A DNA stretch of 64,000 nucleotides from a virus, in IMG/VR virus record IMGVR_UViG_3300037587_000923, positions 18,046-82,045 of that record; one strand, written 5' to 3'. A program made the translations under genes and the position numbers. The notes beneath the pieces were generated by a model. The model saw only the letters and a list, made by a program, of their open reading frames with translations, was not told the origin of the DNA and ran no database searches. Positions 1,965 through 64,000 of this stretch are shown here, piece by piece; position 1 is the stretch's first letter; every line of letters starts with the position of its first letter.

Positions 1965-2828
1965 ATGGAGAACAATAAAGTTGGTAATGTATTTGAAAAG
2001 GGTGTGCTTGTGAACTTAACATCGAGTGTGTGGGGTGGTAAGAGAAAGATACCATCCTCTTACTTAAATAGGCAGGACGCTGATCCTGACTTCATCACGG
2101 CGCATAAGCTTCTTGTAGACAAGGAGAGCATCGAACCTATAGAGAAGGCCAGAGGTGCGGCAAGGAGTTGGCTTCAGAACAGGAGCCTTCCCTTCCCTAT
2201 CAAAGGAGTACTGTTCGTGCCGAAGGATATCATCGATCGCGTTGATGAAAAACTTCAGGGTTTTCAGGACGACTTCTATGAGAAGGTGAATGAATTCCTG
2301 GAGAAGTACGATGCTATAAAAATACAGTCCAAGGAAAAGCTGGGAGAGCTCTACAATCCTTCTGACTATCCAGACGACGTGAACTCGAGATTTAATTTCT
2401 CGTGGAACTTCTTCATCATGGATTCTCCGGACAACTTAAGCGCTATCTCGCCGGCATTGTATGCCAGAGAGAATCATAAGTTCCAGGTTGCCATGAAAAG
2501 CTTTGAGGAGACAGCCATGGCCACGCTGAGGGATAACTTCGGTAAGATGATAGGTAACATGGCAGAGAAGATGACTGGGACCGGCAAGAACGGCAAGTGT
2601 AAAGTCTTCCGTGATTCCCTTATAGGTAATATCAGGGAATTCATCGATGAATTCGGGTACCTCAATGTGGTGGCTGAGGACACAAAGCTCGAGAGGCTCG
2701 TCGGTATAGCCAAGGCAGCTATAGAGGGCGTCTCTGCCCAGGACTTAAGGGACAACAAGATACTAAGAGATGGCCTCTCTGTCAGCATGGGAGAGATACT
2801 CGAGGAGCTGGAGAAGGAGGACTCGTGA
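1965..2828 (+). CDS. DUF3150-like phage protein
   Basis: RSLPFPIKGVLFVP...FLEKY...LYNPSDYP...F motif pattern resembling DUF3150 proteins. Confidence 0.6.
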   Translation: MENNKVGNVFEKGVLVNLTSSVWGGKRKIPSSYLNRQDADPDFITAHKLLVDKESIEPIEKARGAARSWLQNRSLPFPIKGVLFVPKDIIDRVDEKLQGFQDDFYEKVNEFLEKYDAIKIQSKEKLGELYNPSDYPDDVNSRFNFSWNFFIMDSPDNLSAISPALYARENHKFQVAMKSFEETAMATLRDNFGKMIGNMAEKMTGTGKNGKCKVFRDSLIGNIREFIDEFGYLNVVAEDTKLERLVGIAKAAIEGVSAQDLRDNKILRDGLSVSMGEILEELEKEDS

Positions 2829-3175
2829 ACTGGACAGGCGTGTTAATAGTATGGGGGTTGGTGGGCATCATACTAACTCCCATGCTGCCCAGGCCAGGCA
2901 CTCGACTGCAGGCCACTCTTCTGCTTATCATTAGCGGGCCGGCAGGCTGGTATTTCTTTATCAAGATGACCATACAGCTGTACCTATATGACAGAACTTA
3001 CTGAGGATTCAGCATGCAGAAAAAGGAGGAGGATTAAGATGCTATATTTTATTGCGGTATGCTCTCTTGTTGGAGCAAATGTCTGGTACTATCTTGGCGA
3101 CACTGTTAGCGGTTCTATTTTTGTAGCAACCACCTTTATAGTGATGGCCATAAAAAACATACCACGTTAATTGTC

Positions 3176-39543: not shown

Positions 39544-39744
39544 ATGAACACTACAGAGCAACGCATGGCGGCAATATTTAACGAGTGGGCAAAACGTTAT
39601 TCTGAGAACCCTGACGCTTTCGGGCCTATATTTGATGATGAGGGGAAGCCGGTCACCGACTATGGAGTAAGATGCGCACGCTATTTCAAAAAGGTAGCCG
39701 ATGAAATGGACAGCAAGGGGATATTACCCGCACCTGTTTCATAA
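39544..39744 (+). CDS. Cassette gene, hypothetical
   Basis: Bracketed by GTTATGAAAC / GTTTCATAAC (10-bp perfect complement). Confidence 0.7.
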   Translation: MNTTEQRMAAIFNEWAKRYSENPDAFGPIFDDEGKPVTDYGVRCARYFKKVADEMDSKGILPAPVS

Positions 39745-39801
39745 CGCTTGAGGTAAGCGGAACGAGCGTAGCGAGTTTCCCACTTGAGCGAATTGTTATG
39801 T
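39739..39801 (-). repeat. attC-like site A2
   Basis: TAACGCTTGAGGTAAGCGGAA...TTCCCACTTGAGCGAATTGTTA; closely similar to A8. Confidence 0.8.
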
Positions 39802-39822
39802 TGAAACTTTTAACTATAGGAG

Positions 39823-40757: not shown

Positions 40758-40916
40758 TGCCCCCTTTGTGCGAAGATGGGGCCGAAAGAAGTTTATGAAA
40801 AGTGGGGCTTTGATTATGAAGCAAGATATAAAGACACATGCAAAGCGCATAGACCGCTAATGCTTGAGAGAATGGAAGATGGACTGAACAAGTTGAAAGA
40901 GCTTCTGGCAGACTAA
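40602..40916 (+). CDS. Cassette gene starting inside the attC, Cys-rich
   Basis: RBS AAGGAG in the loop; reads through the arm; GTTAGACTGCC / GGCAGACTAAC brackets. Confidence 0.65.
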   Translation: MSGVIDLPCGCTMDDYSGLALYVCQACRERKKRQETSERDSVLQVGTSDGLDCPLCAKMGPKEVYEKWGFDYEARYKDTCKAHRPLMLERMEDGLNKLKELLAD

Positions 40917-41272
40917 CAAGACAAGCTAAGGGGCTTGAACGAACGCAGTGAGAGAAAGTCCAAGGAGTGAAACGACTGTCTTTGAGCGCCTGGGTTATGT
41001 TTTTTGATATGACAGGGCAAAAAATCGGAGGTTATTATGGACGACATAGCAATAAATGAAGGTCAAAAGATATTTGAAGAAAGATATAAAAAGGGATTTC
41101 CAAAAGTGATATTTGGGGAGACGCACATCTCAATTCCTTGCACTTGCGACGATGGCGGTGGGCCTATTCACTGGGCAACAGTGCAGAACAACATAAGATC
41201 GATAGAAGAACATTTCCGGCATGAGGAGACTTTGCGTGAATTAAGGAAAATGGATAGGGACAAAACATAACG
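40914..41272 (+). repeat. Duplicated unit copy 1 (attC A5 plus 77-aa gene 41037-41270)
   Basis: 359 bp that read identical to 43242-43600. Confidence 0.9.
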
Positions 41273-42812: not shown

Positions 42813-43244
42813 ATGAGAGGATATGCGTGTATAGGGTTGGATAACCCCAAGGCGGCAGTTAACGTAGGATCGGCTTTGAGAGCCGCAGGGTGCTATGGGG
42901 CTGCAATGGTGGCTATGACGGGCAACCGGAGCGGAAAGACACCCACTGACACCATGAAGCAGTATCGACATAGGCCGTTGTTGCGCGTTGAAAATTTGAA
43001 AGATGTTATTCCTTATGACTGCGTGCCTGTGGCAGTTGATTTGATAGAGGGAGCTATTCCATTGCCAGAGTATGAACACCCCGAAAGAGCCTTTTATATC
43101 TTCGGGGCTGAAGATGCCACCCTGGGCGAAAGAGTGACATCTTGGTGCAGGGACACTATATATATTCCCACTAACGGTTGCATGAATCTAGCAGCAACGG
43201 TTAATGTGGTGCTATATGACCGGCTTGTTAAGCAAAATTTATAA
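42813..43244 (+). CDS. Cassette gene: SpoU/TrmH-family RNA methyltransferase
   Basis: NPK...NVGSALRAA; IFGAED; IP...CMNLAATVNVVLYDR; 14-bp perfect brackets GTTATAAATTTTGC / GCAAAATTTATAAC. Confidence 0.85.
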   Translation: MRGYACIGLDNPKAAVNVGSALRAAGCYGAAMVAMTGNRSGKTPTDTMKQYRHRPLLRVENLKDVIPYDCVPVAVDLIEGAIPLPEYEHPERAFYIFGAEDATLGERVTSWCRDTIYIPTNGCMNLAATVNVVLYDRLVKQNL

Positions 43245-43600
43245 CAAGACAAGCTAAGGGGCTTGAACGAACGCAGTGAGAGAAAGTCCAAGGAGTGAAA
43301 CGACTGTCTTTGAGCGCCTGGGTTATGTTTTTTGATATGACAGGGCAAAAAATCGGAGGTTATTATGGACGACATAGCAATAAATGAAGGTCAAAAGATA
43401 TTTGAAGAAAGATATAAAAAGGGATTTCCAAAAGTGATATTTGGGGAGACGCACATCTCAATTCCTTGCACTTGCGACGATGGCGGTGGGCCTATTCACT
43501 GGGCAACAGTGCAGAACAACATAAGATCGATAGAAGAACATTTCCGGCATGAGGAGACTTTGCGTGAATTAAGGAAAATGGATAGGGACAAAACATAACG
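43242..43600 (+). repeat. Duplicated unit copy 2 (attC A10 plus 77-aa gene 43365-43598)
   Basis: Reads identical to 40914-41272. Confidence 0.9.
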
Positions 43601-43635
43601 ATTGACTATATGGACATTTAATGTTGGTGTGAATT

Positions 43636-48629: not shown

Positions 48630-50996
48630 ATGGACTTTCTTAATCACATAAAAGAAGTTGAGTGGATAAGCGCCTCCCAATATGCCAAAAAGTATGAGCT
48701 GGACAAACCCAAACTCACCTATTGGCTCAAGAAGAACTTCATCCATCACCAAAAGAAGGAGATATCCCCCGGCCGGCATGGCTATTTAATCCCAGATATC
48801 AAGCCGCAAGACCATCCCAACTTTTCAAAGAAGGGGCCTGACCCCAGGAAGAACAAAGGGGCACGCAAGCCCTACACCAGGAAAGCCAAGTCCAAGCCCT
48901 CCAAGGAAAGAGACTTCGTTCTTGAGAACAGGAAGAAGATCCTCGAGCCATTTCTGGATAAGTTCCTGGAGAAGGCCGACCCTGGGCAGATGTTCTTCTC
49001 AAGCAAAGAGCTGCAAAAGATTATCGACGTACCTAACTCAGCCCTCTTCTCTAGGTGGAAAGAGTGGGGTCTTCGAAGATATAATGCACCGGCCAAGATG
49101 CAGAGTGGTCCCAACAAAAAAGGGATATCGTATTGCTATGCCAGGATGGAATTGGTTAGGTTTCTCTCTGGTAAGCCTATAGATCCCAAAGAGCATAAAA
49201 GCATCGACATGAAAATGGTTGGTGGTCTGGCCGGGGCGGAGGAGGACATCCTTGACGGATGGTACCACTACGACGAAAAGAAGTGTTATCCAATGAACGG
49301 CCATGGCTTCCTGCAGTGGCTCAAAGATAAAGAGGTCAGGATACAAAGCAAGAGGGCCAAGAAGTGGGTACCGATAAAGCTTTTGGACTTTCAGGAAGAG
49401 TTTATCGTTGAGGCCCTGAAGCAAAAGCCAGACGGAGACTTCTGGTACAATCTGGTTATAGCCAGCTGGGAACGAGGTGAAGGGAAGACCATGGTGATTG
49501 CCCTTATAGCCATCTTCCGGTTCTTCAATATGTTCGGTGAGGTAATCAACCTGGCTAGTGAAAGTAAAGAGCTCGCATCGTTTATTCACTACAACCTGAT
49601 CAAAGGTATAATAAACAACACCCCCGAGCTAAGGAAGACACCTGGCCTTCTCGTTCAAGAGAAAGAGATAACGCTAAATAAAGGACCCGGGGATCCGGTA
49701 TGTATTATGAAAGCGGTACCTACTTCATCAGGGCTCCTGCCAGGCACGACATGTGCCGTATTCACAGAGCTCCATAAGTTTAAGAAAAGAGCATTCTTCA
49801 TCGACTTCTGGTCTTCCACAAGAGCCACACCAAACGCCATGACCCTCGTTGATACAACAGTGGCCCCGAAGGGCCACATAGTCCACACGTTATGGGAGAA
49901 GTATTGTAGCGGCAAGGATCCGCTCCTCTACTTCAATCACAAAGAGGATGATATCCGTAATCCCGAGACAACAGCAGACCAACTCAACAGCTTCAAAGGT
50001 ATTATGCTGAAGAATGAGTATGACCTTTACTTCCGGAATAGGTGGGAGGATGCTGCAGGAGGTCTCTTCTCAATAGAGTCCATAAAGAAAATGGGCTACG
50101 CCGGCATTAAGGTTGGTGGAAAAGATATACTTGGCGCATCGCAGGACCTCGACAAGGCGATCGAGGATCTGGACAAGCTTGACCAGGAGAGGTCCACACT
50201 ACTTAGGGGCGGCATTTCCGCTGGCCCCATCACTGAGGCGATAAAGCAATTAGAGGATAGCCTTATCAAGATGGATGACCTCTACAGCCTTCCGGCAACA
50301 GCGGAAGACTTCGACATGCTACAGAAAATGTTTGGGGTGAGTTTCATGGTTGGTGTTGGCTTGGATAGGTCTAAGATGGTCGGCGCCACCCCCGACAATA
50401 CTGTCTTCTCATGTGTAGCCAGAGGTATGGTAGATGAGAATGTGAGCTATTACTTCCTGCTCGATATGTTCGTAACTACCAAGCCGACCTCTATGTTCCT
50501 GCAAGATAAGATGGTAGAGTGGGAAGGTAAGTATGGCTGGATAGATAAGGTCGCTGCAGAGGAATATCAGTCACATGATTTCCATATGTGGTGTGAAGAC
50601 AACGGGTATGAGTCTGAATTTATATCCGCCACATTCAAGAAGCAGGAAGAATTATTTACTTTGATGTGGAGCGTTGTCGATGCCGGCTTTTTGAAGAGCC
50701 CCTCTGTCCCATACTACAGGGATGCCGAGGGCGAGATAAGGCAAGGCTATACCAACAAGGATGATATCTTCAGGGAAGAGCTGGGCGCCTTTGTTCACGA
50801 CCCCAACAAGAAATTCTTCGGCGCCTTGGAGAAGAGAAAGAAGGCCGCCCCAAAAGATGATACGGTATACTCGAGTGGTTGGGGAATTTACGCATGTCAA
50901 GGCGAGAGCCTTGCTGACATTGGCGCCAGGTCAGGTAACACCGGATGTATACAACTTATTGGCAACGACGACACCATTGGAAACTACGATGACTGA
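48630..50996 (+). CDS. Terminase large subunit with long N-terminal HTH-like extension
   Basis: L.DFQ..FI; RGEGKT Walker A; AVFTELH Walker B variant; GLD; DD.V nuclease motifs. Confidence 0.8.
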   Translation: MDFLNHIKEVEWISASQYAKKYELDKPKLTYWLKKNFIHHQKKEISPGRHGYLIPDIKPQDHPNFSKKGPDPRKNKGARKPYTRKAKSKPSKERDFVLENRKKILEPFLDKFLEKADPGQMFFSSKELQKIIDVPNSALFSRWKEWGLRRYNAPAKMQSGPNKKGISYCYARMELVRFLSGKPIDPKEHKSIDMKMVGGLAGAEEDILDGWYHYDEKKCYPMNGHGFLQWLKDKEVRIQSKRAKKWVPIKLLDFQEEFIVEALKQKPDGDFWYNLVIASWERGEGKTMVIALIAIFRFFNMFGEVINLASESKELASFIHYNLIKGIINNTPELRKTPGLLVQEKEITLNKGPGDPVCIMKAVPTSSGLLPGTTCAVFTELHKFKKRAFFIDFWSSTRATPNAMTLVDTTVAPKGHIVHTLWEKYCSGKDPLLYFNHKEDDIRNPETTADQLNSFKGIMLKNEYDLYFRNRWEDAAGGLFSIESIKKMGYAGIKVGGKDILGASQDLDKAIEDLDKLDQERSTLLRGGISAGPITEAIKQLEDSLIKMDDLYSLPATAEDFDMLQKMFGVSFMVGVGLDRSKMVGATPDNTVFSCVARGMVDENVSYYFLLDMFVTTKPTSMFLQDKMVEWEGKYGWIDKVAAEEYQSHDFHMWCEDNGYESEFISATFKKQEELFTLMWSVVDAGFLKSPSVPYYRDAEGEIRQGYTNKDDIFREELGAFVHDPNKKFFGALEKRKKAAPKDDTVYSSGWGIYACQGESLADIGARSGNTGCIQLIGNDDTIGNYDD

Positions 50997-51036
50997 GCGG
51001 GCTAACATAACAGCTTGAGATAAGAGGAGGACGGCA

Positions 51037-51294
51037 ATGAAAGGGACAGTAATGGTGGATGGTGAGGAGTATGAAATAGTACCGTTAAGTGGGGAAACCC
51101 TCAAGGAGCATTTCGGAAAGTTGCTCGATTTGCCGAGAAGTAATCATTGCGTAGATTTAAGGGAGCCAGTGGTTATCGCGGTTAAAAGAAGTGATGGTGC
51201 TACTGAATATTTACATTGCAGCAGTATCGGGGGAGGATGTAGAAGACATGATGGCAAGGGCAATTACTCATTTATTGTTGGAAAAAGAAGATAA
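51037..51294 (+). CDS. Hypothetical protein
   Basis: RBS GAGGAGG after a TAAC half-site. Confidence 0.55.
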   Translation: MKGTVMVDGEEYEIVPLSGETLKEHFGKLLDLPRSNHCVDLREPVVIAVKRSDGATEYLHCSSIGGGCRRHDGKGNYSFIVGKRR

Positions 51295-51438
51295 AACATT
51301 TTTTGTGCCGTGCAATAGACAAGGGCATATATTCCATGAGCATCAAAAGCAATTTGAAAAGATACCTGAATACCACAGGTGCAAAGTATGTGAAAGACAC
51401 CTGAATAAAATTAAAGACCGTTTGTTATAGAGAAGCAA

Positions 51439-51500
51439 ACATAATGATTAAGCTAAACCGCCGCGCCATTTGCGGTCGGATTTTCAGCGCCTTGTTATGG
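51439..51500 (-). repeat. attC-like site C1 (core AAC mutated to AAT)
   Basis: GCTAAACCGCCGC / GCGGTCGGATTTTCAGC..GTTA. Confidence 0.7.
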
Positions 51501-51528
51501 CGCACTTACCCTAAAGAGAAAGGAAAAA

Positions 51529-51893
51529 GTGATGGAAAAAATAGAAGTAAGTTTAGAACCTTTAGTCAGATTGCTTGGAGCAGTGAGTGGGCCACCACAT
51601 TTAATTAGAGAACTTCAGGCGACAAGAGGCCCGTTGGTTGGCGATGACAATCCGATAAATATTTTGATAGATGAATATAACAAAGTGATTAAAAAGAAAG
51701 GAGGTGATGTAAATTGAGTTATTCATTGAATCACCCTTGTGGGGATTGCACCAAGGCGGATAAGTGTAATGATCGACACTTTATCCAAGGTGGAATCAAC
51801 GGGATACATGACGTATACCCGTCTGAAAAAGGGCATCTCGGTAGTGGCACCGTAACTATTGAATGTTCGCAGCATGAAACAAAAGAAAAGTAG
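51529..51893 (+). CDS. Two-gene cassette cargo (51529-51717 and 51714-51893)
   Basis: GTTATGGCGCA / TGCGCCATAAC 11-bp perfect brackets. Confidence 0.6.
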
Positions 51894-51924
51894 TAATTTG
51901 GCGCGGCCTTGTAATGAGGCTGCG

Positions 51925-52048
51925 CCATAACGCTATTATCAGCGGCCGCATTTAGAAAGGAAACTTATGGACAAGAAAACGACACCAGAAAGCAACACAG
52001 ATCAATTAAGCACCGTGGTTAGCGGTCGGTTGCATAAATTGGTTATGA
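51925..52048 (-). repeat. attC-like site C2 (loop contains a gene start)
   Basis: TATCAGCGGCCGC versus minus-strand TAT[G]CAACCG[A]CCGC. Confidence 0.75.
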
Positions 52049-52263
52049 GACCAGGCCCCGGATGGCATCACTTAGGCGGCGCAGTATGGCAACATGATAA
52101 TGGATCTAAAATACATGTTGGTGGCTTGATGGTATACCCCCATAACGGGGAAATAATAAGGCACTGGGAGCAGCTTGAAATAGTGAATAAGCTTATCAAA
52201 ATTAACGGTGGGAATAGAAAGCGTGGATTAATGGCATGGGCCATGAACTTAGCGGTGTCATAA
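51967..52263 (+). CDS. Cassette gene starting in the attC loop
   Basis: Reads through the arm (SGRLHKLVM); GTTATGAGACC / GGTGTCATAAC brackets. Confidence 0.65.
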   Translation: MDKKTTPESNTDQLSTVVSGRLHKLVMRPGPGWHHLGGAVWQHDNGSKIHVGGLMVYPHNGEIIRHWEQLEIVNKLIKINGGNRKRGLMAWAMNLAVS

Positions 52264-52306
52264 CACTTAGCTCTCCGAAGGAGGAGCGTTGAGGTTATGT
52301 TGCTCA
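52260..52306 (-). repeat. Mini-attC repeat copy 1
   Basis: 47 bp identical to 55751-55797. Confidence 0.85.
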
Positions 52307-52464
52307 CGGAATTAACAGAGAGGAAGCATGGAAGACGAGATAGAGGACGGGGTAACAATAAAGACCAACGTGCCAGTCAAGGAGTTTCTTGTCGATGCTT
52401 TAATAAATTTGGGTATGCTCTTGCTGGGAATAGTACTAAGTAAAATATTTTAAGGAGGTTGTGA

Positions 52465-52764
52465 GTGACTGAATTTGATTTCGATATAAATGAGGAGTTG
52501 GAGGAGATCAAGGTAAGCTCCCTCCTTCGTAGCGTTACAGAGAAAGGCAGGGCCCTTCTCTTGAAGAGATTACTGGGGCCCCTTCTGACGCCTGGCATAT
52601 TAACTCCCAAGGAAGCGGCATTCTTCTTCCTAAACGCCGCGCTTGATAAAAGCCCCAAGATGATAGCTAAGAGCTTTAAGTGTGACCTGTCCGGGGTCTA
52701 CTCTATCCTCAGCAAGGCCGAGAATAAGATAAGGGAACATAGGAAAAACAATGAACGGATATAG
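52465..52764 (+). CDS. Sigma region-4/LuxR-like HTH protein
   Basis: LTPKE...IA........V...L.KA..KIR. Confidence 0.6.
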   Translation: MTEFDFDINEELEEIKVSSLLRSVTEKGRALLLKRLLGPLLTPGILTPKEAAFFFLNAALDKSPKMIAKSFKCDLSGVYSILSKAENKIREHRKNNERI

Positions 52765-53383
52765 AGCAAGGATCGATATGATCGGAAAGATATTCGGGGC
52801 ATTAACAGTGATAGGGTTCAGCTATAAAGATAAATTCAATAAAGCTCGCTGGAACTGCCGGTATGAATGTGGTTCCGGGAAAATTGCTGAAGGCTCAAAA
52901 TTACGCAAAGGTGAAATAAAGTCTTGTGGTTGTCTTACGGTAAAATTAATAAGCAAAGGCTTGACCACTCATGGCATGTCAAAAAGCAAAATATATAAAA
53001 TTTGGTCAAGCATGAAAAATAGATGCAATAACCAAAGAGATCCAGCTTATGTTTGGTATGGAGGTAGAGGCATAAAGATCTGTGCCCGCTGGATGAAGTT
53101 TGAGAACTTCCTTATTGATATGGGAGAGCGCCCAGATGGCATGTCTATAGAACGCAAAGACAACAATGGCAACTACGAGCCTGAAAATTGCAAGTGGGCG
53201 ACAAGAGAAGAGCAGGGAAGAAACACAAGCCGTAATGTTTTTATCACATTCAATGGCGAAACACTCCACACATCAGAGTTTGCTAGGAAAGCAGGGATGA
53301 GCCCAGCCTGCTCGCACAGTAGATTAAGGTATGGTTGGCCCATAGAAAGGGCTCTCAATGAGCCGGTAAGAAAACGGCAATAA
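52751..53383 (+). CDS. HNH homing endonuclease
   Basis: KSCGC; W..MK.RC; YGGRGI; SIERKDNNGNYEPENC.WAT..EQ.RN. Confidence 0.85.
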   Translation: MNGYRARIDMIGKIFGALTVIGFSYKDKFNKARWNCRYECGSGKIAEGSKLRKGEIKSCGCLTVKLISKGLTTHGMSKSKIYKIWSSMKNRCNNQRDPAYVWYGGRGIKICARWMKFENFLIDMGERPDGMSIERKDNNGNYEPENCKWATREEQGRNTSRNVFITFNGETLHTSEFARKAGMSPACSHSRLRYGWPIERALNEPVRKRQ

Positions 53384-53551
53384 GGAGGTAAAGTTGAACG
53401 GGAAGAAATCGAAGAAAATTAATGATCTAGCAAGGAGCCTACTCGCGGAGGTAGCTGCCAAGGATATATCAGAAGAAGAGAGGACCCTTGTGTTGAGTGA
53501 GATACGAAAGAAACTAAAGCGAGACTATAAGGCTGGGAGATTGGTGTTTAA

Positions 53552-53830
53552 ATGAAAGACATTGTAATAATAGAGGGCCTCAGGAAAGAAACCTTTCTCT
53601 ACAAAGACGCTATCTCTGAAGCGATAAAGAAGTTGGGGGAGAGTCACCCGGTCGCATCTAAACTTGGAAGGGTTCTCAAGCTGGCCAAGTATCAGCCTAT
53701 TCCTTGTAAGAGATGCGGGCGCACCCTAAGGAACCCCAAGGCCATACAGAGAGGCATGGGTCCCAGGTGCTACGAGATACATATTGAAGAGTCTCAGAGT
53801 GATATATCTTTCAAGAAGGAGACCGTATGA
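53552..53830 (+). CDS. DUF6011-like zinc-finger protein
   Basis: CKRCGR.L.NP..I.RG.GP.C. Confidence 0.7.
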   Translation: MKDIVIIEGLRKETFLYKDAISEAIKKLGESHPVASKLGRVLKLAKYQPIPCKRCGRTLRNPKAIQRGMGPRCYEIHIEESQSDISFKKETV

Positions 53831-54096
53831 GTAAGCGCGAAAAGAGACTTGGACTCCTCTATGAGGATGATATCAAGTATTCGAAAAGTGAAATCGCCGA
53901 GATGTGGTTTCACTACAGGGTGGCCAAGCAGTATGCCTGCATGGGAGACGTGTGTGAACGCATAGCTTCCTTTGCTTTAACCGAGCAGGAATTCACCCAG
54001 ATGGATTATAAAGAGAGCGTGCCCTCAAACAGGTCTCCTTACTGGATAGAGACCATTGAAGTGCCAAGGGGCTTCGCAGAGAGGGAGATTTATTGA
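53827..54096 (+). CDS. Hypothetical protein
   Basis: Coupled ORF. Confidence 0.5.
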   Translation: MSKREKRLGLLYEDDIKYSKSEIAEMWFHYRVAKQYACMGDVCERIASFALTEQEFTQMDYKESVPSNRSPYWIETIEVPRGFAEREIY

Positions 54097-54407
54097 TGAT
54101 AGGTTTTCCTAAAGAGAAGACGTTTAGGTCAGAGGAGTATAAGGATTATATCCGGTCGCTCCCTTGTTGTAATCCTAATTGCCCCAATCATGGCCGCTTA
54201 CCTAGCGAGGCTCATCATACTGAAAAATCCGGGACTGGCTGTAAAGGATCTGACCTTAGCTGTATTCCTCTCTGTTGTCATTGCCATGTGCCTGGCGTTC
54301 ACACCATGGGTCACATCACGTTTCAGCAGCGCAACAATGTGGACTTCAACAAAGTGCAAATCAAGTGTTTGTCTGGCTTTATAGAGAAGGAGTTGATTAA
54401 TGATTAA
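54093..54407 (+). CDS. DUF968/HNH-like nuclease
   Basis: R.E.Y..YIR.LPC...EAHH...G...K.SD...IPLC..CH. Confidence 0.75.
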   Translation: MMIGFPKEKTFRSEEYKDYIRSLPCCNPNCPNHGRLPSEAHHTEKSGTGCKGSDLSCIPLCCHCHVPGVHTMGHITFQQRNNVDFNKVQIKCLSGFIEKELIND

Positions 54408-54765
54408 GGATGTAACCCCGGTAGTATTCTTAGTTGATAATAAAAAACACGCCATAACCCTTAATTCGTTTGAGCTTGTATATAAGAACTCTCCCATGGA
54501 GCGCACCGAGATAACGGGAGAGATATCGTTTATGGCCGTAGACCACCAACAGAAAATACTAATATCCAAGCCCATGCTAGTTATTCACCTAGGGACCTCA
54601 GTGCTAACGGCTGTCATTAAGGAATACGCTATTCTCCACAACAGCTTGATGAATTCTGGTATGACATCAGCTGCCACCTCATCAGAGTGTAGAGTAGAGT
54701 ATGAAGTTATAGACGAAGAAGAAAGAGACCCTTTCATCGCAGCAGTGGAGGAGGCCGTCTCGTGA
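54400..54765 (+). CDS. Hypothetical protein (C-terminal FIAAVEEAVS)
   Basis: Coupled ORF. Confidence 0.55.
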   Translation: MIKDVTPVVFLVDNKKHAITLNSFELVYKNSPMERTEITGEISFMAVDHQQKILISKPMLVIHLGTSVLTAVIKEYAILHNSLMNSGMTSAATSSECRVEYEVIDEEERDPFIAAVEEAVS

Positions 54766-55052
54766 CATTGGAGCTTTTTAAAATACCAGAGCATGTCAAG
54801 GCTCGGCAAGCCAACCCCAACCCTATGGTGAGGAAGGGCGGAATCCTCAAAGGATATAAGTGTGGTAAATGTGAGCATCTCCTAGTCACCGAAAGCCCGG
54901 CAGGTAAGAGATTTTTCAAGTGTCGCCATAGGGGCGTTACTAGCGGAGCAGCGACAGACCACAGAAAGGGATGGGATGCCTGTGTATTGTATTCCGAGGA
55001 AGGCGAACTCCCTTTCGTCACAGAAGTCAGGAGGGCCAGTGCCAGCCACTAA
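54762..55052 (+). CDS. Zn-finger phage protein
   Basis: CGKC.H...KC......ATDHR..W.AC. Confidence 0.65.
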   Translation: MTLELFKIPEHVKARQANPNPMVRKGGILKGYKCGKCEHLLVTESPAGKRFFKCRHRGVTSGAATDHRKGWDACVLYSEEGELPFVTEVRRASASH

Positions 55053-55293
55053 ATCTAATTACGGCAAGAAGGTCGAAAGTCTCGATGACCTCCATAAGCT
55101 AGTCCAGGCGAGGAGGGCCGTGATCTGTCCCGGGAACAACGGCGCCATAGTACCAAATACAAACGTGGCAGCAGCGTGGGTCTTTAACTTAAACGGAGGC
55201 TCGTTATATAGAGTATTTAAAGCCGGCCTCTATACCTACGAGAAGGTCGATAAGTTTATAAAGGCAGTCGAGGAGGCTGTTGAGTCAACATAA
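54976..55293 (+). CDS. Hypothetical protein (C-terminal FIKAVEEAVEST); stop codon forms the cluster D entry site
   Basis: ORF track; true start probably the downstream GTG. Confidence 0.55.
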   Translation: MPVYCIPRKANSLSSQKSGGPVPATKSNYGKKVESLDDLHKLVQARRAVICPGNNGAIVPNTNVAAAWVFNLNGGSLYRVFKAGLYTYEKVDKFIKAVEEAVEST

Positions 55294-55498
55294 CATGGGA
55301 ATTCAGGGGCTTTTGCCGACAGGAGGAGATGGAAAGATGGATAAGTGTGAAAATAAAAAATGCCCAGACAATGATGACTGGTGCAGTAAAGGATGCAGAA
55401 GTATAAGCATGAGCATGTCGATAGGCCATTGCCCAGATTACCTTACAACTAAAAAAGATCCATCGGCAGAAAGTCCAGCCTGCAATGTGGGGTTATAA
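55288..55498 (-). repeat. attC-like site D1 (loop encodes a 53-aa Cys-rich ORF, 55337-55498)
   Basis: ATTCAGGGGCTTTTGCCGA / TCGGCAGAAAGTCCAGCCTGCAAT. Confidence 0.75.
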
Positions 55499-55501
55499 AT
55501 T

Positions 55502-55747
55502 ATGTGTGATTGGAATAACACGGTAGTTTTGGAAACTGCAAGCGGAAAGAAAGTGGACGTTGATGGCTGTATAGCACCCCTTGTAAGCGCCTTAAATGCC
55601 GCTGGCATAGAAACGATAGCTTGCTGCTGTGGACACGGAAAACGCCCCGGCAATATAGCATTAAAAGACAAGAGAGAATTAATTATTGCACCAGACTACA
55701 AAACAGGGAGAGAAATTGACAGGGCGTTTCCCCCTATAAACGATTAA
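55502..55747 (+). CDS. Cassette gene, conserved-looking hypothetical
   Basis: VD.CIAPLV.ALN.AGI.T.ACCCGHG; GTTATAAATTA / TAATTTATAAC brackets. Confidence 0.7.
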   Translation: MCDWNNTVVLETASGKKVDVDGCIAPLVSALNAAGIETIACCCGHGKRPGNIALKDKRELIIAPDYKTGREIDRAFPPIND

Positions 55748-55750
55748 TTT

Positions 55751-55797
55751 ATAACACTTAGCTCTCCGAAGGAGGAGCGTTGAGGTTATGTTGCTCA
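55751..55797 (-). repeat. Mini-attC repeat copy 2
   Basis: Identical to 52260-52306; partial third copy at 56111-56129. Confidence 0.85.
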
Positions 55798-55907
55798 ACT
55801 TAAGATAGGGGCATGAGGCCCAGAGGAGGCAACCAAACTCAAACAATACCGTGTTGGCGGTCTGTTTGAACGCTTGGTTGGGCAGCATTTAATGAGAGGG
55901 GTAAGCG

Positions 55908-56078
55908 ATGAAAAGAGTAGAGTATAAGTACGACATTGACCAGAAAGTAAAAACACCATTTGGAGAGGAGGGTATTGTTTCGATGCTTGGCTTTGATGAA
56001 GCTGGCAATCAGTATCATGTGAAGACTGCCAATGACAGCCAGTGGTTCAAGGAAAAACAACTCACCGAAACAGATTGA
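55908..56078 (+). CDS. Cassette gene, 56 aa
   Basis: GTTGGGCAGC / GCCGCCCAAC brackets; preceded by a half attC (minus strand CCCAACCAAGCGTTCAAACAGACCGCC). Confidence 0.6.
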   Translation: MKRVEYKYDIDQKVKTPFGEEGIVSMLGFDEAGNQYHVKTANDSQWFKEKQLTETD

Positions 56079-56168
56079 TGCATTCTGGGCGGTGGCTAAG
56101 GCTGCCGCCCAACACTTAGCTCTTCGAAGCAATATCGCCCACAAACTTTAGCAACCAGGAGGAAGAGG

Positions 56169-56771
56169 ATGAAGAAGAAAGCAGATAACGTAACAGAGGA
56201 ACTTTGCAAGAAACACCTAGCTTGCAAGCTCAGCAACGATGAGCTGCTTGAGGTAGGCCGTGAGCTGGGCAGGAGAGAGAACGATAAGCTCGCTCTGGAC
56301 GACGAGAAGAAAAAGGCCAATGCCGAGTTCAGCTCCAGAGAGAAGAGCATCAAGGCCGACATCGGCGTTCTTATTCACAAGATCAATACCGGCGAGGAGC
56401 ACAGGGAGGTCGAGTGCAATAATGTGATCAACTGGTCTGATAGGTCGAGACAGATCATCCGTCTTGATACCAACGAAGTTGTCCGGACAGATACCGTCTC
56501 TGAGGCCGATTGCCAAACTCGTCTCGATCTCAAAGAGAAGGAGATGAAAGAGGCCAAGAACGGACCATACGGTATATGGAATGGCGAGAAGTTTGTGGTG
56601 GACGACAAGAACGAAAGGCTCGAATACACCACGGTATCAGCTGCAGCCAACTATCTGGCCATGATGAGAAAGGAAGAGGGCGTGACTCTCACTGTTGAAC
56701 CTATCTCCTCCAAGGATCTAACCGAGAAGGTCGGTGACCAGACGGAAGAGAGCGATAAAGATAAAGGGTAG
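56169..56771 (+). CDS. Hypothetical phage protein
   Basis: L...L...E; G.E.R.VEC; R.DT.E pattern. Confidence 0.6.
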   Translation: MKKKADNVTEELCKKHLACKLSNDELLEVGRELGRRENDKLALDDEKKKANAEFSSREKSIKADIGVLIHKINTGEEHREVECNNVINWSDRSRQIIRLDTNEVVRTDTVSEADCQTRLDLKEKEMKEAKNGPYGIWNGEKFVVDDKNERLEYTTVSAAANYLAMMRKEEGVTLTVEPISSKDLTEKVGDQTEESDKDKG

Positions 56772-56820
56772 AGGTCTGCAGGGATGAAGGTACTTTTACC
56801 CAAGATAACTGAGAAATTAG

Positions 56821-58061
56821 TTGACATTTATTTCTCACAAGATTAATATTGTTTTTGTGAAAACAAGATATACATTTAGGTTTTATCCTACTCAAGAGCA
56901 AGAACAATCTCTTGTCAAGACTTTCGGTTGTGTTCGTGTTGTATATAACAACGCACTTCGAGCCAGAATCGATGCTTGGCATAATGGTGAGAAAGTAAAC
57001 TATAACCAGTCTTCTGCTGCGCTTACACTTCTTAAAAAAGAAGCTGAATTTATGTGGCTCAATGAAGTGTCCTGCGTTCCTTTACAGCAAAGCCTTAGAC
57101 ATCTACAAGTAGCATTCAAAAACTTCTTTGATAAGCGGTCCAAGCATCCTACTTTTAAGTCTAAGCGATCCAGGCAGAGCGCTGAATATACTTGCTCAGC
57201 TTTTAAGTGGGATAGTGGCAATCGAAATCTCACCATTGCCAAACTTGGTAGACTTAAAGTGAAGTGGAGCAGGAGCTTCCAGAGTAACCCCACTACAGTC
57301 ACGATATCCAAGGACTGTAGTGGGAGGTACTTTGTTTCGCTTGTTCTCGATGAAGCTGTCGACCTTATACCTATGACCGGGAAGAGTATAGGTATAGATG
57401 TTGGCATAAACCGTCTTGCTACGCTTAGCAATGGCGAACGTATCCCTAACCCAAGGCATACAACGAAGTTTGCCAATAAACTTGCCAAAGAACAGAGGAG
57501 GCTTGCCAAAAAAACCAAAGGAAGCGGGAGATGGAACAAGCAGCGACTCCGTGTTGCAAAAGTTCACGCCAAAATAGCAGACTCTCGCAAAGATCATTTG
57601 AATAAAGTTACTATCGATTTGGTTAAGCGCTTTGATCTTATTTGTATCGAAGACCTGAATGTTAGAGGCATGGTAAAAAACCATCGCCTTGCCAAGCATA
57701 TCTCGGATGTTTCCTTTGGTACTTTTAGGGCAATGCTCGAGTATAAAGCCCTATGGCATGGCAAGGAAGTGGTTGCTATTGATCGTTTTTTTCCCTCCAG
57801 CAAAAGATGCTCCGCTTGCGGGTTTGTAGCATCCAAAATGCCTTTGGATGTACGTGAGTGGACATGCACAAATTGCGGTGCATGTCACGATCGTGATGAA
57901 AACGCAGCACACAATATACATGCGGTCGGGCAGACCGTCAAAGCACGCGGAGAAAACGTAAGACTTTCTTAGGCTTCGGCTTAACAAAGCAATTTTCTAT
58001 GAAACGTGAACCACTTAATAGCTAAGTATTAAGACCCCTCGACTTTCAAGGGAGGATGCCA
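56821..58061 (+). mobile_element. tnpB: IS200/IS605-family (IS1341-like) TnpB-only element
   Basis: CDS 56857-57972 with GIDVG, IEDL, DRDENAA and Zn finger; right-end hairpin CCCTC..GGGAGGATGCCAA; promoter TTGACA-17-TAATAT. Confidence 0.9.
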
Positions 58062-58175
58062 ACTCTGCGCTGATCATTCCAAGCGTACCGAAGGTATGGA
58101 TATTATAGAGACTTGGGAGTGTAAGCAGAGCGTTATCAAGCTGAACCAACCACAAAGACCACGTAAGAGGTAATC

Positions 58176-58511
58176 ATGCAGGAAGTTTTAGTCGAGCCAG
58201 AATCTATATCAGGATATTGCGAGCCATTCAAGACCGATTACATTACGGTAGATAGCTGTAAGGCCAGAAAGGTAATTGCGGTCCGAGGCAGGGATACTAC
58301 CTTGAGAAGATGCAAGAAGTGTCCCGGTCTTCTCGAGAGCAAGGGGAGCAATAAGCGTATAGGGCAATCCAACACAGAGCCGCCAGCCAGACCCTCACGT
58401 ATAGGTTGGTGTGATGATTGTCGTAAGCACCACTCTAAATGCACGAGGTTCAGCGTCAACATGAACCTGTGTTCGGCTTGCTATCAGAGATCGAGGCGGA
58501 GGGAAAAATAA
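58176..58511 (+). CDS. Cys-rich hypothetical protein
   Basis: Multiple CxxC motifs. Confidence 0.55.
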   Translation: MQEVLVEPESISGYCEPFKTDYITVDSCKARKVIAVRGRDTTLRRCKKCPGLLESKGSNKRIGQSNTEPPARPSRIGWCDDCRKHHSKCTRFSVNMNLCSACYQRSRRREK

Positions 58512-59017
58512 TGGATCTATTTGGATACAAGTCAGCCGACTTTTCGGCTTGCAGAAAATACCGGTATACACTATGGCGCTGGTGGGATAAGTCCAAGCCT
58601 TATGCTATGTTCGTTTGCCTTAATCCCAGTATCGCAGATGAGATCCAGGACGATCCTACTGTCCGGAGATGCATTAACTTCTCTCGTGACTGGGGGTATG
58701 GGGGTTTTGTAATGACAAATATCTTTGCATACAGGGCCACGGATCCGAAGGAGATGAAGAAGTATTACGAGAACCTCGGCCCTAAGGAATTGACTACCGA
58801 TCTGGCCAGTAATGCCGTCCATCTTATCAAGCTCTCAAGGAAGGCAGGTGTGATTGTTGCTGCATGGGGGACGCACGGAGCATTTATGAACAGAGGAGAC
58901 CGGGTATCAAAACTGATCCCAGGGATGAAGTGTCTCAAGATAACAAAGGGCGGCTTTCCTCAGCACCCATTGTACCTGGCGAAGGATAGTGAGCTGATAG
59001 ATTTTAATGGGAGGTAA
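58511..59017 (+). CDS. DUF1643 family protein
   Basis: YRY.L.R.W; LNPS.AD...DDPT.RRC; N.FAYRATDP; AAWG; P.HPLY. Confidence 0.88.
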   Translation: MDLFGYKSADFSACRKYRYTLWRWWDKSKPYAMFVCLNPSIADEIQDDPTVRRCINFSRDWGYGGFVMTNIFAYRATDPKEMKKYYENLGPKELTTDLASNAVHLIKLSRKAGVIVAAWGTHGAFMNRGDRVSKLIPGMKCLKITKGGFPQHPLYLAKDSELIDFNGR

Positions 59018-59019
59018 TT

Positions 59020-59457
59020 GTGGCAATACTAAACTACACAACATCCATATCTACCGAGAAGACCGCATCAGAGATACAGAAGAAGCTGGCGATGGCCGGA
59101 GCCCAAGCGGTGCTATGTGAATACGACGAAGACGGCGTTATGAAATCTATGTCGTTCCGGATTGGGACACAACATGGTCTCGTTTCATTTAGGCTGCCAG
59201 CCAATATCGCGGGGGTTTACCATAGTCTCGAGAGAGACGATAAGGTTCCGAAGAGATACAAGACTTCTGACCAAGCTGCAAAGGTGGCATGGAGAATACT
59301 CAAGGACTGGATCGAAGCACAGCTCGCCATCATAGAGGCAGGTATGGCGGAGATGACAGAAGTATTCCTTCCTTATGCTCAGGACAGGGAAGGCCGCACT
59401 ATGTACGAGGTATTCAAAGAAGGTAAATTGAAGATGATTACTGAAGGGAGGAGCTAA
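59020..59457 (+). CDS. Conserved-looking phage protein
   Basis: NYTT.I...KT..EIQ; QA..VAWRI.KDWIEAQ.A. Confidence 0.7.
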   Translation: MAILNYTTSISTEKTASEIQKKLAMAGAQAVLCEYDEDGVMKSMSFRIGTQHGLVSFRLPANIAGVYHSLERDDKVPKRYKTSDQAAKVAWRILKDWIEAQLAIIEAGMAEMTEVFLPYAQDREGRTMYEVFKEGKLKMITEGRS

Positions 59458-59672
59458 TGGCCGTATCGTTTAGCTGTAAATGTGAGGAAAGGAAGAAGCC
59501 TGTAAAGGAACGCAACTGGGCCGTCTGGCAGCGACATTGCCACCACTCAGCCTTTGCCGGTTACCACAAGACCCCTTCAGACTATAGCACCGTAAAATGT
59601 TATACATGTGGTGCTATCGGCAGAACGAAGGCCGCTTATGTCCATAGCTTAAAGGACGCAACTTTTAACTAG
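59457..59672 (+). CDS. Zn-finger phage protein
   Basis: SAF.GY..TPSDYS...C..CG...RTKA.YV. Confidence 0.65.
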   Translation: MAVSFSCKCEERKKPVKERNWAVWQRHCHHSAFAGYHKTPSDYSTVKCYTCGAIGRTKAAYVHSLKDATFN

Positions 59673-59681
59673 GAGGTAACA

Positions 59682-60545
59682 TTGGACGAATTTACTAGAA
59701 GCTGGATAATAGAAAACGGAGTGCCGATCGTGCAGAGCTATGGCGACACCCTAACAATAAGGGCCCTGCACTATAGACTGGTTGCCATAGGCATGACCAA
59801 CTCCACTCAACACTACAAGAGAGTCGTAGCTGCCATGGGTAAAGCCCGGTGGGACGGCTTGCTTTCTTTCGATGCTTTCAGAGATCTCGACAGGGATGTG
59901 ATAGGCGAAACTAAGTATGAAGTTACCGACGTCGACGAAGGCATAGCGGAGGCAAAGAAGCAAATAGGTCTCTGGATGAAGAACTACTACAAGAACAGGT
60001 GGGAGAATCAGCCCAAGTACGTGGAGGTCTTTATAGAGAAGAAGGCCCTGCAAGGTGTGTTCGAGGGGCCATGTCGGAGCAATAGGGTGGCGCTCGCTCC
60101 CTGCAAAGGATACCCCAGTCTGACGTATATGCATGACGCCGCTAACCGTATGATAGGAGCGGAGTCACAAGGCAAGGAGACTATCATCCTGTACTTCGGT
60201 GATTACGATCCGAGTGGTGAGGATATCCCTCGGAGTATCCAAGAGACCATGCTGAGGATGGGAGCTGATGTCCGAGTGGAAAGGATCCTCCTTCTCGAGG
60301 AGCACGTCCGGGCATGGGGCTTACCACCTGCTCCAACCAAACTGACTGACTCCAGGTCAAAGGCATGGAATGGTCTCGGTCAGGTAGAGCTCGATGCGGT
60401 TGAACCAAACAAGCTCAAGGATATAGTAAGCGATGCGATCGACGAACACTTCGATTATGGTCTGTACGATGAGCTTAAAGATCAAGAGGAGGAGGAAGGC
60501 GAGCAGTACAAGGAAGAGCTTAAAGAGTTTGTGAAAGGATTGTAG
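59682..60545 (+). CDS. Topoisomerase VI-A-like Toprim domain protein
   Basis: T.R.LHYRLV; EVFIEK.AL; KGYPS; YFGDYDPSGEDI; ELDA. Confidence 0.8.
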   Translation: MDEFTRSWIIENGVPIVQSYGDTLTIRALHYRLVAIGMTNSTQHYKRVVAAMGKARWDGLLSFDAFRDLDRDVIGETKYEVTDVDEGIAEAKKQIGLWMKNYYKNRWENQPKYVEVFIEKKALQGVFEGPCRSNRVALAPCKGYPSLTYMHDAANRMIGAESQGKETIILYFGDYDPSGEDIPRSIQETMLRMGADVRVERILLLEEHVRAWGLPPAPTKLTDSRSKAWNGLGQVELDAVEPNKLKDIVSDAIDEHFDYGLYDELKDQEEEEGEQYKEELKEFVKGL

Positions 60546-63516: not shown

Positions 63517-64000
63517 TCTCCATCATTCCCTATCCCTTAATCCCTATCCACAAAGAAGCCCACCATATCCTCCCTGTACGAACACCCCTACCTGAATACC
63601 AATACACCCCTAAAGCCATCTAAACCGCTTAGAACGCAAATACGGAGTTCACCCCCTATTTAACCCCTCCTCACTGATCAGATAGTTAAAAACCATGGAC
63701 AGTCCACGATTTACACCGCGAAAACACTTCTAAAACCCTACAGGAAAGGGATGGGGAAACCCTACTGCAGAGCTGATCTCTGGACATGACATTGCGGTGA
63801 AAATTAAGGAGAGTCCTATAGGTTGAGAGCAGTGGCGGTATATCAAGTCAGATAACGGGGGGTGATTATAAAGAATAATCATGCCCACATAGAGAAAACA
63901 AATAGTAGATATATAGAAAGTAAATACTTAAAAAGAAAGTGAGGAGTTAAGATGTTCTATTCAAAGAAAAAGTCAGTCACAAGCCAGATAAAGGAAGTAA

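Follow-up and report, generated by a model that had tools for sequence, protein, structure and literature searches.

A repeated 47-nt hairpin between accessory genes of a marine-sediment phage as a possible miniature member of an attC-like site family

The window studied here comprises 64,000 bp of phage DNA, namely bases 18046-82045 of a single 82,045-bp virus record (IMG/VR IMGVR_UViG_3300037587_000923) of a marine-sediment phage. Its subject is a short repeated element of 47 nt, hereafter the 47-mer, that lies downstream of a gene (48630-50996) encoding a terminase-like protein of 788 aa. Coordinates are those of the window unless they are given as genome positions. The element is present in two exact copies and one partial copy:

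52260..52306, + strand: copy 1 of the 47-mer, which starts inside the stop codon (TAA, 52261-52263) of an open reading frame (ORF) of 98 aa
55751..55797, + strand: copy 2 of the 47-mer, which begins 3 nt past the stop of an 81-aa ORF
56111..56129, + strand: remnant copy with the left box and the first 17 nt of the 47-mer body, one mismatch included; its 3' arm is replaced

Two matches to the 47-mer were reached in none of 100 shuffles, and the remnant agrees with it at 18 of 19 nt (18 of 20 on extension). The left 19-mer, the stem 18-mer and the right 20-mer of the element were searched for on both strands of the whole 82,045-bp contig, allowing up to four mismatches, and no further copy was found. 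The DNA flanking the full copies is unrelated and their 47/47 identity has sharp edges. Copy 1 reads, in order, left box CATAAC, a 5-nt spacer, a 7-bp stem with a bulged G and a GAA loop, a 6-nt spacer and right box GTTATGTTG. In the predicted fold, the stem is made up of 4 bp, the bulged G on the 3' arm and 3 bp, and the outer boxes (CATAAC or TATAAC on the left, GTTATGT on the right) pair over 5-6 bp. An earlier annotation made from the letters of the window (the sequence-only reading) had described the copies at 52260 and 55751 as identical, the one at 56111 as partial and the stem as about 7 bp with one extra base, and these descriptions were confirmed.

Larger hairpin elements of 60-190 nt separate the genes between RecT and position 43620, and again past the terminase gene. 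They start with (C/T)ATAAC at the stop codon of the upstream gene (YATAA|C, the bar marking the putative crossover point) and end with GTTAT; in nine of the 13 listed family sites the left box is CATAAC, TATAAC or ACTAAC. One of these elements (39738-39806) weakly matches, by BLAST, the spacer that separates blaBEL-1 from aac(6')-Ib4 in the class 1 integron array of a Klebsiella plasmid (E = 0.01, 77% over 57 nt). The attC sites of integrons are described as an inner L-box stem with one or more extrahelical bases, connected by unpaired spacers to the outer boxes (PMC4889954), for which the consensus RYYYAAC / GTTRRRY has been given (PMC9892861). A first covariance model was built from four aligned phage sites and a hand-drawn structure, which has a 6-bp outer stem, 6 and 5 unpaired nt, and an inner stem whose 3' arm has a bulged base. 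The four sites are 84.5% paired in this structure, against 35-46% in slid controls, with five compensatory pairs. Run on the real class 1 array, the model gave 33.4 (the blaBEL-1 attC), 16.4 and 14.1 bits at three of its cassette junctions, in each case on the strand opposite to that of the resistance genes. A second, independent model was built from six sites outside the window, of which three are real attC sites, one lies elsewhere in the genome and two come from relatives. It gave 17 matches in the window at E <= 10, ten of them at E < 1 and six at E < 0.1, and every previously noticed family site was among the 17. The two models link the phage sites to real class 1 attC sites in both directions.

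All 17 matches of the independent model are on the + strand. We take this to be the recombinogenic bottom strand, since its counterpart in the plasmid array is the strand opposite the cassette genes. The phage sites are thus found on the gene strand, so that the cassettes are inverted relative to the usual layout. One unit has been duplicated exactly: 40914-41272 equals 43242-43600 over 359 bp, running from TAAC to CATAACG. The duplicated unit consists of one site with its downstream 77-aa gene, and both of its ends are at crossover boxes. Taken together, these findings on the family bear out the wider picture of a cassette array that the sequence-only reading had drawn.

A cluster of attC sites lacking an integron integrase (CALIN) is defined by at least two attC sites with no integron integrase nearby (Cury 2016, PMC4889954). 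Integrase-less attC arrays are already known in phages and are reported to be rare there, with 17 CALINs in 21 phages (Qi 2023, PMC9892861). With at least two attC-like sites, and because the record contains no integron integrase, the surroundings of the 47-mer are a CALIN-type array. The sites resemble those of CALINs in being intergenic imperfect hairpins with AAC...GTT boxes, unpaired spacers, a bulged inner stem and small genes between them. The differences are that the 47-mer, at 44-47 nt and with a 3-nt loop, is missed by the independent model, that the phage sites lie on the gene strand, and that some of the cassette cargo genes have homologues in the backbone of a related phage.

We tentatively favour the reading that the 47-mer is a miniature member of this attC-like family, which separates accessory genes, and that it forms a gene-less unit of 43-44 nt between AA|C crossover boxes; we rate this a little short of an even chance. 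Its left box (CATAAC or TATAAC) is of the family type, and the same boxes are found in sites that score against real attC. The boxes depart from the RYYYAAC / GTTRRRY consensus at one R position. The 9-mer right box GTTATGTTG occurs four times on the + strand, with a shuffle mean of 0.45 per strand, and each time it closes such a hairpin: in a mini-hairpin before the window (M0, see below), in family site E2, in copy 1 and in copy 2. The 47-mer can be aligned with E2 at both flanks, and its spacers of 5 and 6 nt and its bulged stem come in the same order as in the larger sites. With the first model, no non-training sequence of the 64-kb window scores higher than the two copies (13.6 and 12.9 bits). 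Towards the left, identity stops at ATAA|C in both full copies, and copy 2 with the added position 55798 makes a 44-nt unit (C55755-A55798) bounded by TATAA|C and CTCAA|C. Like gene-less integron cassettes, the unit lies between crossover points and has a recombination-type site and no gene. Unlike these, it is only 43-44 nt long, essentially the site alone, and has no predicted promoter. On this reading, the 47-mer is probably an internal-deletion derivative of a family site.

If this reading holds, the mobile unit of the array would be a site with its downstream gene, with crossover at the YATAA|C in the upstream stop codon, and the 47-mer unit would have been copied recently, as two exact copies and one decayed copy suggest. 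The single-stranded + strand would fold into an outer-box stem, unpaired spacers and the 7-bp stem with its bulged G. An integron-type tyrosine recombinase could then cut the folded 47-mer at AA|C, an enzyme that would most likely be supplied by the host and less likely be the phage's own Xer-like enzyme. The 47-mer would in this way act as a seam at which neighbouring cassettes are joined or lost by site-by-site recombination.

Several observations weigh against this interpretation. Firstly, the first model scores the 47-mer about as high as the top of the background (12.7 bits in the window, 12.5 bits in control loci), and the element is absent from the whole-window list of the independent model at E <= 10. 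In small-window scans with the independent model, copy 1 reached 5.4 bits (+) and 7.5 bits (-) and copy 2 reached 2.5 bits (-); there was no preference for a strand, and the alignment was confined to the outer boxes. Secondly, the geometry is unusual. Known attC sites are about 57-141 bp long, and the box-to-box length of 44-47 nt of the 47-mer is below this range; to our knowledge, no attC is as short. On the right, the end of identity coincides with an AA|C box in copy 2 but not in copy 1, where CTCAC is one nt short and the unit reading needs a 1-nt loss. Thirdly, the predicted fold has little stability (-6 to -8 kcal/mol, z -1.4 to -2.5), and the full copies are identical and therefore offer no covariation by which the fold could be tested. 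The energy itself is uninformative, because a real attC used as control folds no better (z -0.45). Lastly, no integron integrase reaching its cut-off is encoded in the 82-kb record, and no recombination joints were found in the Logan contigs of two runs that were used for read-level checks. We file the 47-mer as a miniature or decayed relative of the family, with a putative attC identity.

The seams around copy 2 are relevant to the question whether the 47-mer is itself a target for insertion. The sequence-only reading had regarded the mini-hairpins as resident landing pads in the attI role, once complete palindromes into which cassettes were inserted at the AA|C of the left arm. We consider this unlikely, although it is partly supported. 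Two features are needed here:

55279..55294, + strand: inverted partial copy of the right arm of copy 2, made up of the last codons and stop of a 105-aa ORF; candidate left arm of a split site
55792..55884, + strand: attC-like site E13 (12.2 bits, independent model), with left box GCTCAA|C and right box GTTGGGC

The arm of copy 2 at 55785-55799 is the reverse complement of 55279-55294 plus one extra T (15/16), about 460 bp upstream, which agrees with the complementarity with one bulge noted earlier. Genome-wide and on both strands, matches with at most one error to that 15-mer averaged 0.03 in 200 shuffles. The 15/16 arm supports the view that copy 2 may once have been a longer palindrome. The proposal that removal of the intervening DNA rebuilds a self-complementary site stood in so far as an in-script join of 55275-55293 and 55754-55803 folds into a continuous hairpin of -15.4 kcal/mol, against -7.7 kcal/mol for copy 2 alone. 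On the right side, copy 2 ends in CTCAA|C, which the independent model aligns as the left box of E13. E13 and the downstream 56-aa gene (55908-56078) make up a cassette-like unit that ends in CCCAA|C where the remnant begins. Three AA|C boxes thus join copy 2, the E13 cassette and the remnant, an arrangement to be expected from the insertion of a cassette between two 44-nt units that stood in tandem. The E13 seam is tentative, because the alignment scores only 12.2 bits. Another candidate for the E13 left box, GGCAAC at 55827 in the minimum-energy fold, was replaced by GCTCAAC (55793-55799) on the basis of the model alignment. A strong GC-rich hairpin (56086-56110; -12.5 kcal/mol for a 61-nt stretch), which has no T-run after it, is found between the 56-aa gene and the remnant.

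A cleaner case of a split site than copy 2 is M0 (genome 15956-16004), a mini-hairpin with right box GTTATGTTG and a stem unrelated to that of the 47-mer. M0 and the 47-mer are built alike, with outer boxes and short spacers around a stem of 7-8 bp that has a single bulged base on the 3' arm and a loop of 3 nt. An arm complementary to M0 at 11 of 12 positions lies about 500 bp upstream (locus at genome 15441-16004, window -2604 to -2041), and exactly one attC-like site (40.3 bits) and one 139-aa gene are enclosed between the arms. M0 is situated 0.85 kb upstream of the sole tyrosine recombinase gene, on the same strand. Seams at AA|C are seen in the 359-bp duplication, at copy 2, E13 and the remnant, and at M0.

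Against the landing pads, the 461-bp block to the left of copy 2 starts without an attC-like site in the model scans and is therefore not predicted by simple cassette insertion, and the supposed left arm of copy 1 (51004-51011) is only the generic 8-nt box AACATAAC, which is common to other sites. An empty junction had been expected in relatives. DNA-level comparison of alleles was made with one relative, the 79-kb IMG/VR contig G001 (loci L001 and L043-L046), which has 60% terminase identity, is collinear almost throughout and is the closest relative with readable DNA; by terminase alone the closest is P0001, a 74.9-kb contig with 95% identity. At the matching loci of G001 both the 47-mer and M0 are absent, and no empty allele was found in this one relative. 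What is left of the landing pad is the split arms at copy 2 and M0, with a putative acceptor role.

The recombinase does not fit an attI role either. Only one tyrosine recombinase is encoded in the record (genome 16848-17849), at 53-56 kb from the copies. It scores 26-27 bits against the IntI model TIGR02249, which has a cut-off of 265, and is 21% identical to the plasmid IntI1. Its best family is XerA-like (55.8 bits), and a XerC-like recombinase is its only PDB match by sequence. In IntI1 the box I arginine and HxxR are 131 aa apart, in the phage enzyme 83 aa, too few to accommodate the IntI-specific domain between box I and box II. Judged by its sequence, the phage recombinase is not an integron integrase. 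In G001 it is kept at the same place with 41% identity. Known attI sites are double-stranded, lie next to intI and are not hairpins. Both attI and attG recombine as double-stranded DNA according to the source consulted, and attG has the consensus GWT (10.1101/2022.09.11.507474). The 47-mer is like attI and attG in that insertion would be at a G|TT (= AA|C) triplet outside the cassette's own attC, and unlike them in being a hairpin-forming palindrome far from any recombinase gene. The 47-mer is not an attI, and this part of the sequence-only reading was abandoned. Completeness of the record was estimated by CheckV at 72%, and an integrase gene may lie outside the recovered part. A host IntI as the acting enzyme is our conservative guess.

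Another reading that we hold to be unlikely is that the 47-mer is a regulatory stem-loop acting on transcription or mRNA, with modules being shuffled by homologous recombination between the copies. Each of the three copies is found between genes and on the gene strand, with a start codon 22-111 nt further on, and a GGAGG string is buried in the stem. Gene-less integron cassettes reportedly can carry promoters. The PeSL cassettes (PeSLs) of T4-type phages are described as strong sigma-70 promoters with terminators that act via homologous recombination, and phage hyperplastic regions as being shuffled via such short repeated promoter-terminator motifs (PMC2839356). The 47-mer shares with PeSLs that it is a short repeated intergenic stem-loop at accessory-gene seams of a phage. 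It differs from them in lacking a promoter or terminator signal and in having its edges on attC-type boxes: a scan of 50500-59500 gave ten promoter-like and ten terminator-like sites, which is not above shuffles, and no sigma-70-like promoter or intrinsic-terminator-like site overlaps any copy. Rfam gave no match in 50000-60000, the motif is not conserved in the relatives, and the AA|C seams and family boxes are left unexplained by a regulatory role.

Quite unlikely in our view is a further possibility in which the phage lineage would run its own IntI-less analogue of an integron. The Xer-like recombinase would capture inverted 'hairpin plus gene' units and insert them at minimal acceptors such as the 47-mer and M0, which would be stripped-down precursors of attC and attI, and it would do so at fixed hot spots such as the one behind the terminase gene. 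Xer recombinases use folded single-strand sites, for example the attachment site of CTX phage, where a hairpin of the single-stranded phage DNA supplies the duplex that is cut. The sole recombinase of this phage being Xer-like, the comparison is a lead, and action of the enzyme on these sites is hypothetical.

For the remaining alternatives, the wider gene context is needed:

50997..52464, + strand: accessory block 1, with 5-6 small ORFs, site E12, copy 1 and a 41-aa ORF; missing from G001
51001..51011, + strand: orphan left box CTAACATAAC, 5 nt past the terminase stop; AGCTTGAG comes next, with a ribosome-binding site immediately behind it
51438..51503, + strand: attC-like site E12 in block 1 (33.4 bits, independent model), with left box CATAAT and not CATAAC
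52465..54407, + strand: backbone genes between the copies (99 aa, 53 aa, DUF6011, 89 aa, DUF968), collinear with G001
54408..58438, + strand: accessory block 3, about 4 kb here against about 230 bp in G001

The orphan box at 51001-51011 marks the left seam of block 1. The gene of 99 aa (here at 52465) has a G001 homologue that overlaps the terminase gene and is followed by homologues of the 53-aa, DUF6011, 89-aa, DUF968 and DUF1643 genes. Three pieces are extra compared with G001: 50997-52464, a free-standing HNH endonuclease gene (52751-53383; phrog_374, E = 7.6e-65), which splits the backbone and is not at that place in G001, and 54408-58438. The last piece, block 3, contains in order ORFs of 121, 96, 105, 53 and 81 aa, copy 2, E13, the 56-aa gene, the remnant, a 200-aa gene with a G001 homologue that sits elsewhere, tnpB and a 111-aa ORF. 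The tnpB gene (56821-57972) is solitary and encodes OrfB_IS605 with Cas12f-like TNB and helix-turn-helix domains; a promoter-like site TTGACA-17-TAATAT is found at 56821-56849. The 47-mer had been said to stand always at the right end of a cassette run, and this is true only loosely: copy 1 is 158 nt (one 41-aa ORF) ahead of the backbone, which resumes at 52465, and copy 2 is in the middle of block 3 and not at its end. With regard to cargo, a 143-aa cassette gene (42813-43244) between two attC-like sites is 74% identical to a G001 gene at 2595-3017 that is not flanked by sites there. Before the window, at genome 12663-13487, there is an ORF with a 59%-identical homologue at the matching place in G001.

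It is very unlikely that the 47-mer is a functionless scar, left when an attC-like site that had decayed was recently duplicated nearby or copied by gene conversion. In line with a scar, there are only two full copies and a remnant, found in one genome and very close kin, one copy has already decayed, and the independent model misses the element. Its neighbours show decay too, namely CATAAT in E12 and the orphan half box at 51001. This contrasts with the 47/47 identity of the full copies with sharp edges and unrelated flanks, the retained bulged stem, and a copy 1 that is 100% identical in a second sample in which the backbone is only ~86-87% identical. In the source run, the unitig of the 47-mer has a depth of 179.7, beside 89.5 and 95 for its flanks, which means that there are two full copies per genome. 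The stretch 52411-55618 is almost uncovered in the contigs examined from this run, a gap that proves nothing. The second sample, from another study, has a 262-nt contig that spans 52208-52469 including copy 1 and a 211-nt contig from the HNH gene (52867-53077), both with 100% identity, and pieces of the terminase gene and the 99-aa gene that are ~86-87% identical. This mosaic, made up of few short contigs, suggests a recent exchange of accessory pieces. The identity of the HNH gene amid a more distant backbone is as expected for a homing gene.

Two weaker proposals can be dealt with briefly. A non-autonomous element of the IS200/IS605 or repetitive extragenic palindrome (REP) kind, tied to tnpB at 0.7 kb from the remnant, would be a short imperfect bulged hairpin like the 47-mer, but it is highly improbable: no Y1 transposase (PF01797) matched anywhere in the record, the tnpB flanks (56772-56856 and 57973-58175) are by eye unlike the 47-mer, and the boxes of the 47-mer are those of the attC-like family. 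The other option left by the sequence-only reading, that 52294-55294 is one 3-kb multi-gene cassette, agrees with the direct repeats at its flanks and is refuted, with next to no probability left, by the five collinear backbone genes (99 aa, 53 aa, DUF6011, 89 aa and DUF968), which trail the terminase gene in the same order in the repeat-less G001, only the HNH gene and the ORFs from 54400 onward being extra.

Searches beyond this phage were made for relatives and for the element itself. With the terminase alignment as query, 5 + 8 loci were found; a single terminase sequence found nothing in viral contigs or metagenome contigs, the 200-aa protein gave no match, and the recombinase protein gave none in viral contigs or genome contigs. 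An exact 26-mer of the 47-mer and a gapped pattern of both its ends were each absent from viral contigs, a 22-mer was absent from genome contigs, and a fuzzy search of the 47-mer in loci L001-L013 returned chance-level matches only, with 2-4 mismatches. The generic pattern CAACATAAC-N20-50-GTTATGTTG was rejected as a probe: it hit 26 loci in viral contigs, which is about chance by our own arithmetic, and 11 of the 26 belong to one unrelated 65-nt family and the rest are plain hairpins.

The larger attC-like sites do recur across the phage lineage, in relatives with 60%, 34% and 28% terminase identity, at conserved hot spots, on the gene strand and with cargo that is partly of phage type:

47790-47916: attC-like site of this phage, 0.8-1.5 kb upstream of the terminase gene, as are the next two (three phages with 34-60% terminase identity)
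63695-63756 of G001 (L046:3695-3756): attC-like site
2405-2484 of L002: attC-like site
2105-2164 and 2698-2760 of L012, a groundwater relative with 28% terminase identity: attC-like sites of 22.2 and 32.5 bits

The reading as a miniature family member is also in line with the setting of copy 1, an insertion hot spot just behind the terminase gene; the two sites of L012 are in the same place, with the terminase stop codon inside the left box. The ORF between these two sites (181 aa) is encoded on the opposite strand and thus has the orientation usual for cassettes, which differs from that in this phage.

If the 47-mer is indeed a miniature member of the family, its 44-nt unit would be the smallest attC-type site seen, a statement for which no literature search was aimed at minimal attC sites. 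It would also be a simple substrate for studying the minimum requirement of integron-type recombination and the origin of attI and other acceptor sites. If it is inactive, it would be a record of how sites decay and accessory genes are frozen into a phage backbone. The conserved position of attC-like sites near the terminase gene could imply a packaging-related role. Among the sites upstream of this gene in the three phages, the left arms are similar (ATTGAGTTCAGC).

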